DNA of 906 bases, from the NCBI RefSeq assembly GCF_003334385.1, contig NZ_QOWN01000142.1; one strand, 5' to 3'. The notes under the pieces were generated by a model that did no database searches, was not told the origin of the DNA, and saw nothing but the letters and a program-made list of their open reading frames with translations. The translations under genes and the position numbers were made by a program. This stretch comes from Escherichia coli (lineage in GTDB: Bacteria; Pseudomonadota; Gammaproteobacteria; Enterobacterales; Enterobacteriaceae). Each line of letters begins with the position of its first letter. Position 1 is the stretch's first letter. Shown piece after piece: positions 1 to 906 of this stretch.

Positions 1-906
1 AATCCGGTCATAGTCCATTGCCTGTGTCAGCATGGAGGCATACAGGGGGACTTCTGCACGATAAGCATTTTCACTGCGCAGATACCAGCTCTCATCACTG
101 TCCCGGTTGAGGGAGTAGTTAAAGGCACCGGCCTGCAGCTTATTCCCCTGGATAAAGGCCCCTTCCTCCGTGGTGGCACCGTTAATGGCTTCCACCACCT
201 GAATACCCTTACCGCTGGTCGCCAGCCCCGACGCACTGTTGCCGGCGTTCACCAGGTTCAGGATGGTTTTTCCGGTTGCCCTGCCACCGTCAATGACCAG
301 TCTGTCAGCATTGTTCTGTGCCATATCCGGGCGTACACGCAGGCTGATGGTGCCATTCTGCCCGTTCAGGTTTTTCACTTTCAGGGTTGCCGGTACGAAC
401 TTCCCTGTGCGGGTGGAGGTGAAATGAATCTGTCCGGCATGGCTGAGGTCATCCACCACCGACTGCACCGTGGCGTTATCGGGAATATTCCAGGTGGCAC
501 CAGAGGCGAGAGTGACATTCGTGGGGTCAATGGCACCGTTCAGCACAGTGCTGCCGGTCAGCTTCAGGGCTGTACCGCGCTGAGCAATGACATCCGTGGT
601 GACGGTACTGTCGTTCAGCGTCAGCGTGCCTTCATTCAGGTTGACGGCTTTCTGGGTGAGTGTGGTGTTGCTGACAGTGAGTGTGCCACTTCCTGATTTT
701 TCCACGCTGCCGTTACCGGTGAGAGAGCCTCCCTGCAGGAGTGCATCGCCTTCACGGATGGTCAGGGTATCGTTGTTCACCGTCTTCCCGGAAAGGGTAA
801 GTATGGCGCCGTTATTCAGCGTGGTGGTGCCCGCCAGTGTGCCGCCCCTGGCGGTGAACAGTCCGCCATTTACCGTGGTATCCGTGGCCGTATCACCGGC
901 GTTCAG
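1..906 (-). CDS. flu: Antigen 43 (Ag43) family self-associating autotransporter adhesin, internal fragment partial at both ends (5' end of gene beyond position 906, 3' end beyond position 1); covers C-terminal passenger beta-helix, autochaperone-like region and start of translocator domain
   Basis: Seen in sequence: the minus-strand frame with codons 906..904, 903..901 ... 3..1 has no stop codon across all 302 codons. Its translation is LNAGDTATDTTVNGGLFTARGGTLAGTTTLNNGAILTLSGKTVNNDTLTIREGDALLQGGSLTGNGSVEKSGSGTLTVSNTTLTQKAVNLNEGTLTLNDSTVTTDVIAQRGTALKLTGSTVLNGAIDPTNVTLASGATWNIPDNATVQSVVDDLSHAGQIHFTSTRTGKFVPATLKVKNLNGQNGTISLRVRPDMAQNNADRLVIDGGRATGKTILNLVNAGNSASGLATSGKGIQVVEAINGATTEEGAFIQGNKLQAGAFNYSLNRDSDESWYLRSENAYRAEVPLYASMLTQAMDYDRI. 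Composition is Thr/Gly/Leu/Asn/Ser-rich with no Cys, and short T-L-T / L-N-x-G beta-strand and turn motifs recur, as in AIDA-I-type beta-helical passengers. Established knowledge (recalled, no search run): this stretch, notably ...HFTSTRTGKFVPATLKVKNLNGQNGTISLRVRPDMAQNNADRLVIDGG... and ...NYSLNRDSDESWYLRSENAYRAEVPLYASMLTQAMDYDRI, matches my recollection of E. coli Ag43. No in-window start or stop, so both ends are truncated by the window. Confidence 0.88.
   Translation of the reverse strand, partial: MNAGDTATDTTVNGGLFTARGGTLAGTTTLNNGAILTLSGKTVNNDTLTIREGDALLQGGSLTGNGSVEKSGSGTLTVSNTTLTQKAVNLNEGTLTLNDSTVTTDVIAQRGTALKLTGSTVLNGAIDPTNVTLASGATWNIPDNATVQSVVDDLSHAGQIHFTSTRTGKFVPATLKVKNLNGQNGTISLRVRPDMAQNNADRLVIDGGRATGKTILNLVNAGNSASGLATSGKGIQVVEAINGATTEEGAFIQGNKLQAGAFNYSLNRDSDESWYLRSENAYRAEVPLYASMLTQAMDYDRI

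Follow-up and report, generated by a model that had tools for sequence, protein, structure and literature searches.

A 906-base window from Escherichia coli is a conserved internal piece of the antigen 43 gene agn43 (flu), whose closest relatives vary in passenger class, intactness and genomic context

The window, by which we mean the whole 906-nucleotide stretch of DNA analysed here at its full length, is an ordinary internal piece of agn43 (flu), the gene for a self-sticking surface protein of E. coli. Minus-strand frame 1 is the only stop-free frame and runs for 302 codons across all 906 bases; the remaining five frames contain 1–18 stops each. Alignment with flu of K-12 (b2000, 3120 nt) is gapless, with 899 of 906 positions identical and a nucleotide offset of 1272, and it sets the register of the window as codons 425–726 of a 1039-codon gene. 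A megablast search of 5,426 complete E. coli genomes returned window-type sequence from 4,089 of them, at 7,128 places, the best match to annotated agn43, at 905/906, recurring in many of these genomes; the 30 records listed are all annotated either as ‘autotransporter adhesin Ag43’ or as ‘Ag43/Cah family autotransporter adhesin’. An earlier reading made from the sequence only had assigned the window to the Ag43 gene on the minus strand, in agreement with the genome matches, the K-12 alignment and the literature. It had also placed the gene start past position 906 and the gene end past position 1, with about 420 and 310 codons missing. The alignment to K-12 flu/agn43 bears out both directions and gives the missing lengths as 424 codons (1272 nt) on the 5′ side and, on the 3′ side, 942 nt made up of 313 codons and the stop. 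Bases 905–906, to which that reading was attached, carry no special feature; it concerned what the window edges cut off.

On the opposite strand, plus-strand frame 1 (antisense, window 1–906) contains just one stop in 302 codons. This near-open frame probably arises as a by-product of the repetitive, G+C-rich sequence that codes for the beta-helix.

Gene identity, frame, domains and missing lengths are direct observations, and the window divides into the following features:

1–906, minus strand: internal fragment of agn43 (flu), codons 425–726 of 1039, open at both ends (reading frame, K-12 and agn43 alignments, NF033177 at 315.6 bits)
526–906, minus strand: C-terminal 127 residues (425–551) of the alpha43 passenger, beta-helix, bottom of the L (match to 4KH3; Pfam AIDA repeat tail)
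523–528, minus strand: Asp551-Pro552 codons, GAC CCC (residues 545–558 are VLNGAIDPTNVTLA; the 4KH3 construct ends at 551)
109–462, minus strand: type 1 autochaperone domain AC1, residues 573–690 (Pfam PF18883 AC_1)
361, minus strand: the one position at which the window departs from the commonest allele, with C on the plus strand, which makes codon 606 GGG for GGA, a synonymous change (sequence comparison)
1–108, minus strand: post-AC1 segment leading into the translocator, residues 691–726 (NF033177 alignment)

The first 127 residues encoded by the window align to residues 377–503, the last ones, of the solved Ag43a passenger 4KH3 (E 6e-66), with the Pfam AIDA repeat tail at residues 2–33 of the window protein. 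Window residues 127–128 are an Asp-Pro pair within AIDPTN, at the residues expected for Ag43 processing. This Asp551/Pro552 pair we take to be the alpha43/beta43 processing site published by Henderson and Owen (1999), and cleavage here is putative. Further downstream, PF18883 AC_1 is complete (model positions 1–114 of 114; residues 149–266, E 3.7e-19), and PF03212 Pertactin (residues 157–277, E 4.5e-12) overlaps it; the order from passenger to translocator is as in Ag43, with the entire AC1 domain inside the window. Against the NCBIfam antigen 43 equivalog profile NF033177 (auto_Ag43) the 302-residue fragment scores 315.6 bits, the whole-protein cut-off of 1200 being out of reach for a fragment, and full-length relatives identical in the window score 1797–1902 bits. 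The fragment alignment extends to its last residue, 302, at profile position 635 of 948, and in the full-length relatives the alignment runs on to position 948. The window thus covers the end of the passenger, the Asp551/Pro552 site, AC1 and the first residues beyond AC1, and the C-terminal translocator, a 12-stranded beta-barrel in Ag43, lies past position 1. An Rfam scan of the window gave no match.

A recent review places the cleavage of the passenger after AC1, ahead of the translocator (PMC10058404). The Pfam coordinates instead put the classical Asp551/Pro552 site 21 residues upstream of AC1 (window 109–528). The conflict is one within the literature and does not concern the sequence itself.

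Comparison with known systems places the window firmly among Ag43 genes. K-12 flu (CP4-44; Ag43 class C1) encodes 300 of the 302 residues identically and has the same AC1 domain and Asp551/Pro552 site; it differs by seven nucleotides and two amino acids (I676 for V and K680 for R). The agn43 genes of Y5, B7A, MLI106K4, EH53 and 118UI (WP_000820497.1, WP_000820391.1 and others) are closer still, matching at 905/906 nucleotides and encoding an identical window protein, with A where the gene strand of the window has G in codon 606. These genes differ from one another in their N-terminal passengers, in three regulatory types and in their island contexts. For Ag43a of the uropathogenic strain CFT073 (class C3) the last 127 passenger residues align with the start of the window protein, but the 4KH3 structure stops at residue 551 and is without AC1 and the rest of the window; CFT073 Ag43a shares the EJ1-BL1 module type (PMC6668479). 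The self-associating autotransporters Cah, AIDA-I and TibA have the same architecture and an AC1/Pertactin-type domain. However, Cah reaches 77–84% DNA identity over just 25–41% of the window, and AIDA-I scores 52 bits on NF033177 versus 316 for Ag43.

Searches of complete E. coli genomes, of plasmid, phage and viral-contig collections, and of species-representative genomes and metagenome contigs did not yield the exact 906 bases, and the best complete-genome match (905/906) carries the other base at position 361. An exact 61-mer over that base occurs in 198 complete-genome records. A central 40-mer over it occurs in 28 metagenome contigs, each with 3–50 other differences from the window, and in none of the viral contigs or species-representative genomes. 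Elsewhere, C at 361 is found only in alleles with at least three further differences from the window; it is a minor polymorphism, which in the window sits within an otherwise major allele. Both variants of position 361 occur in strain 2014C-4135, in separate agn43 copies, and gene conversion between paralogues is one way in which the C could have arisen. Since the exact window was found nowhere, what we say of the flanks of its own copy, including its switch, intactness and location, is inferred from relatives. Nine loci matching at 905/906 (L001–L003 and L035–L040) were read for this purpose.

The sequence-only reading had held that intactness cannot be read from the window, and the near-identical loci justify this caution, since they comprise an intact majority and one frameshifted gene. 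Of the nine, eight encode full-length proteins of 1039–1041 residues. The ninth, L003 (O145:H28 RM12761; 7729–10849), matches the window equally well at 905/906 but is annotated as frameshifted, the frameshift lying near the 3′ end and giving a stop at codon 1027. Two metagenome alleles are also truncated (L015, 424 residues; L021, 954 residues), and disrupted genes amount to 3 of the 27 with a called stop. These cases lend some weight to the idea that the window's copy is a pseudogene, broken beyond the window edges by a frameshift, a premature stop or an inserted IS element. Nevertheless, the window is open over all 302 codons, its sole change from the common allele is synonymous, its nearest relatives are mostly full length, and errors in metagenome assembly may account for the truncated L015 and L021. 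We consider a disrupted gene unlikely, and an intact copy the better reading.

The N-terminal passenger shows how much can vary behind one window sequence. Residues 53–424 of the nine loci fall into two groups that are only 73–75% identical to each other, and at least four distinct N-terminal passenger alleles occur among them. K-12 and the solved passenger 7KO9 are the nearest to one group, and CFT073 Ag43b/Ag43a (7KOB/4KH3) to the second. The alleles of 118UI and Y5 are 100% identical over nucleotides ~1200–2160 and 66–69% identical over nucleotides 241–960. Window-identical relatives carry either SL1-like or SL2-like N-termini. This fits the published picture in which SL subdomains are shuffled onto two EJ-BL-AC modules, shuffling onto EJ1-BL1-AC1 giving rise to classes C1 and C3 (PMC6668479, PMC10058404). 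By its 99% identity to K-12 and its strong match to the C-terminus of 4KH3 the window belongs to the subfamily I module (EJ1-BL1-AC1E), and its sequence does not separate class C1 from class C3. The view that the window gives no basis for judging the N-terminal domain was well founded, as the two groups share it at 905/906. The same shuffling, seen in these loci and in the literature, could be taken to mean that the window lies in a chimeric or distinct autotransporter that shares just the conserved module and has another N-terminal passenger. This we regard as very improbable: the N-termini linked to the window sequence are of the Ag43 type in 9/9 loci, their best solved relatives are the Ag43 passengers 7KO9 or 7KOB/4KH3, and whole relatives clear the NF033177 cut-off (1797–1902 against 1200 bits). 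An Ag43 passenger, of one class or the other, is what we expect upstream.

Whether the copy sits in a prophage, an island or a plasmid had likewise been called unreadable from the window, and the 905/906-type loci do occupy at least three island contexts. All nine are chromosomal, with a yeeP-type GTPase gene upstream in 9/9. A yeeR-like gene lies downstream in 8/9, followed by IrmA, DUF905, DUF932, antirestriction and JAB genes; in L001–L003, where the fetched flank is long enough, cbeA and cbtA come after the JAB gene. In L036 an IS66 element stands in place of the downstream neighbour. The K-12 module is annotated as the cryptic prophage CP4-44, with both the yeeP-type upstream and the yeeR-side downstream neighbours present; the full downstream series of such a module is yeeR, yeeS, yeeT, cbeA and cbtA. 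In 118UI the module is in an island adjoining the kps capsule genes, and in Y5 it adjoins a type I restriction system. Integrase genes lie 10–13 kb downstream in Y5, and no tRNA genes were found within 20 kb on either side of the 118UI and Y5 islands. That a plasmid or an active phage carries the window's copy is scarcely credible: 7,125 of the 7,128 complete-genome places are chromosomal and three are on plasmids, distant Ag43/Cah homologues (77–84% over part of the window) do occur on true plasmids, but plasmid-collection matches at ≥97% are all in chromosome-sized records of 1–4.9 Mb, 50,697 phage records gave no match and the variant 40-mer is absent from viral contigs.

The PLSDB records matching at ≥97% (NZ_CP134663.1, NZ_CP141089.1, CP061244.1 and CP061233.1) are 1.0–4.9 Mb long and predicted to be non-mobilizable. 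Most likely these are chromosomes, whole or in fragments, that were deposited as plasmids.

Published work describes how OxyR binds unmethylated GATC sites upstream of agn43 and represses the gene, how Dam methylation of these sites blocks OxyR and permits transcription, and how the state is contested anew at three GATCs with each replication (PMC3764049, PMC13337833). The sequence-only reading had put this GATC cluster upstream of the start codon and outside the window, and the relatives agree with the literature on this point. The 906 bases contain no GATC, and all nine loci at 905/906 have three GATCs, spaced 19–20 and 13 nt, at 190–254 nt upstream of the ATG. In window terms this is 1.46–1.53 kb past position 906, so the 1.5 kb extension suggested for finding the switch is marginal in reach, at least 1.6 kb being needed. 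Relative to the ATG the sites occur in three regulatory types: −222/−203/−190 (the K-12 type), −228/−209/−196 and −253/−234/−221. Upstream DNA is available for 32 Ag43 loci; three GATCs are present in 29 of them and two in the other 3. By its relatives, the window's copy likely has a three-GATC switch.

The two-GATC loci are the metagenome loci L018, L027 and L007. The third switch site of L018 (minus strand, ~241 nt before the ATG) reads GATT, and the second site of L027 (~233 nt before the ATG) reads AATC. Either natural variation that alters switching or faulty assembly could account for them.

Alignment of the three regulatory types shows which leader elements are kept: the AATAGAATAAAACGATC box, the further GATCs, a 12-bp hairpin with its T-run, and the ribosome-binding site. 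Between these elements much of the leader has diverged. A putative promoter, TTGTCC-17-TAGAAT, abuts the first GATC. The hairpin has a 12-bp stem, followed by TTTTTT, and lies 38–65 nt before the ATG, ahead of the ribosome-binding site; it scores as an intrinsic terminator. As Wallecha (2014) is cited in PMC5389530, the leader terminator constitutes a second level of control. Rfam family RF00124 (IS102/IsrC) covers the agn43 leader in K-12, 118UI and Y5, scoring 74 bits for the −253 type versus 250 for the other types.

In the −253 type, about 130 nt between the kept elements are mostly unalignable (L001 7429–7734, L002 7429–7734, L004 9240–9545). RF00124, which the K-12 annotation lists as the small RNA IsrC, corresponds to the 5′ leader of agn43, beginning at the GATC box and ending at the terminator hairpin (L001 7499–7704; L004 9316–9519).

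The scarcity of GATC extends well beyond the window. Shuffling of synonymous codons predicts 3.3 GATCs in the window, and 1.3% of shuffles reach the observed zero. In 26 distinct full-length agn43 alleles there are 0–1 GATCs per 3.1-kb gene versus 8–10 expected, and no shuffle was as low as the observed count (lowest 1–4 overall, and 2–3 for the five alleles with one GATC). GATC is the second most depleted of the 256 tetramers. In K-12 no further GATC follows the third switch site for 3,370 bp, until just beyond the stop codon (L004 9350–12720), and the switch GATCs are almost the sole Dam sites over more than 3 kb. We rejected the notion that the depletion is specific to agn43: yeeP, cbeA, cbtA and the DUF932, antirestriction, JAB and DUF5983 genes of the module are GATC-free too, and the yeeR-like gene has 17–19 GATCs. 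The simplest reading is a module-wide avoidance of GATC, from restriction avoidance or foreign origin, a background that makes the three conserved switch sites conspicuous. If the absence were instead adaptive, leaving the switch GATCs as the sole targets of Dam, SeqA and MutH for more than 3 kb, it would make the heritable ON and OFF states more stable. We find this doubtful, with scarcity as a by-product of restriction avoidance or foreign origin being the alternative; a role in isolating the switch is no more than possible. A limited literature search found no report of a GATC-free agn43, which is not proof of novelty.

In the restriction system adjoining the Y5 module (L034 14442–17221), hsdM and hsdS have no GATC versus 9.0 and 3.1 expected; hsdR has 8.

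Collectively, the results suggest the following picture, which we hold with high confidence as a whole: the window is the middle third of agn43, probably in a CP4-44-like chromosomal module, with the switch upstream. The gene encodes antigen 43, a self-associating type Va autotransporter adhesin, and the window is part of its conserved subfamily-I EJ1-BL1-AC1 module, encoding the passenger tail, the Asp551/Pro552 site, the autochaperone that aids folding of the passenger, and the segment that leads into the outer-membrane barrel. Past position 906 would lie the extended signal peptide and the N-terminal passenger responsible for self-recognition, with the gene start, as ATGAAACGACATCTGAA, expected 1272 nt out. 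If the copy resembles its nearest relatives, the promoter and three GATCs would be found 190–254 nt upstream of the ATG, where Dam methylation (ON) would compete with the repressor OxyR (OFF), and a leader with a terminator hairpin, expected as GCCGGTATCCAC...GTGGRTACCGGC plus a T-run, would follow downstream of the GATC switch. The barrel and the stop codon would lie within the 942 nt past position 1. The most likely setting is a chromosomal CP4-44-like module with the yeeP GTPase gene, agn43 and a yeeR-like gene, and then the cbeA/cbtA toxin-antitoxin pair.

The identity of agn43 and its Dam/OxyR biology are textbook knowledge, and 906 bases that cut such a gene mid-way are of small weight on their own. 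Relatives that share the window vary in class, intactness and context, and the caution of the earlier reading was justified in this respect. The window sequence is no reliable guide to the self-recognition class, which is set by the N-terminal SL subdomain, or to intactness or island; calling any of these takes at least 1.6 kb past position 906 and about 1 kb past position 1. The window itself is the conserved, recombining core of agn43.
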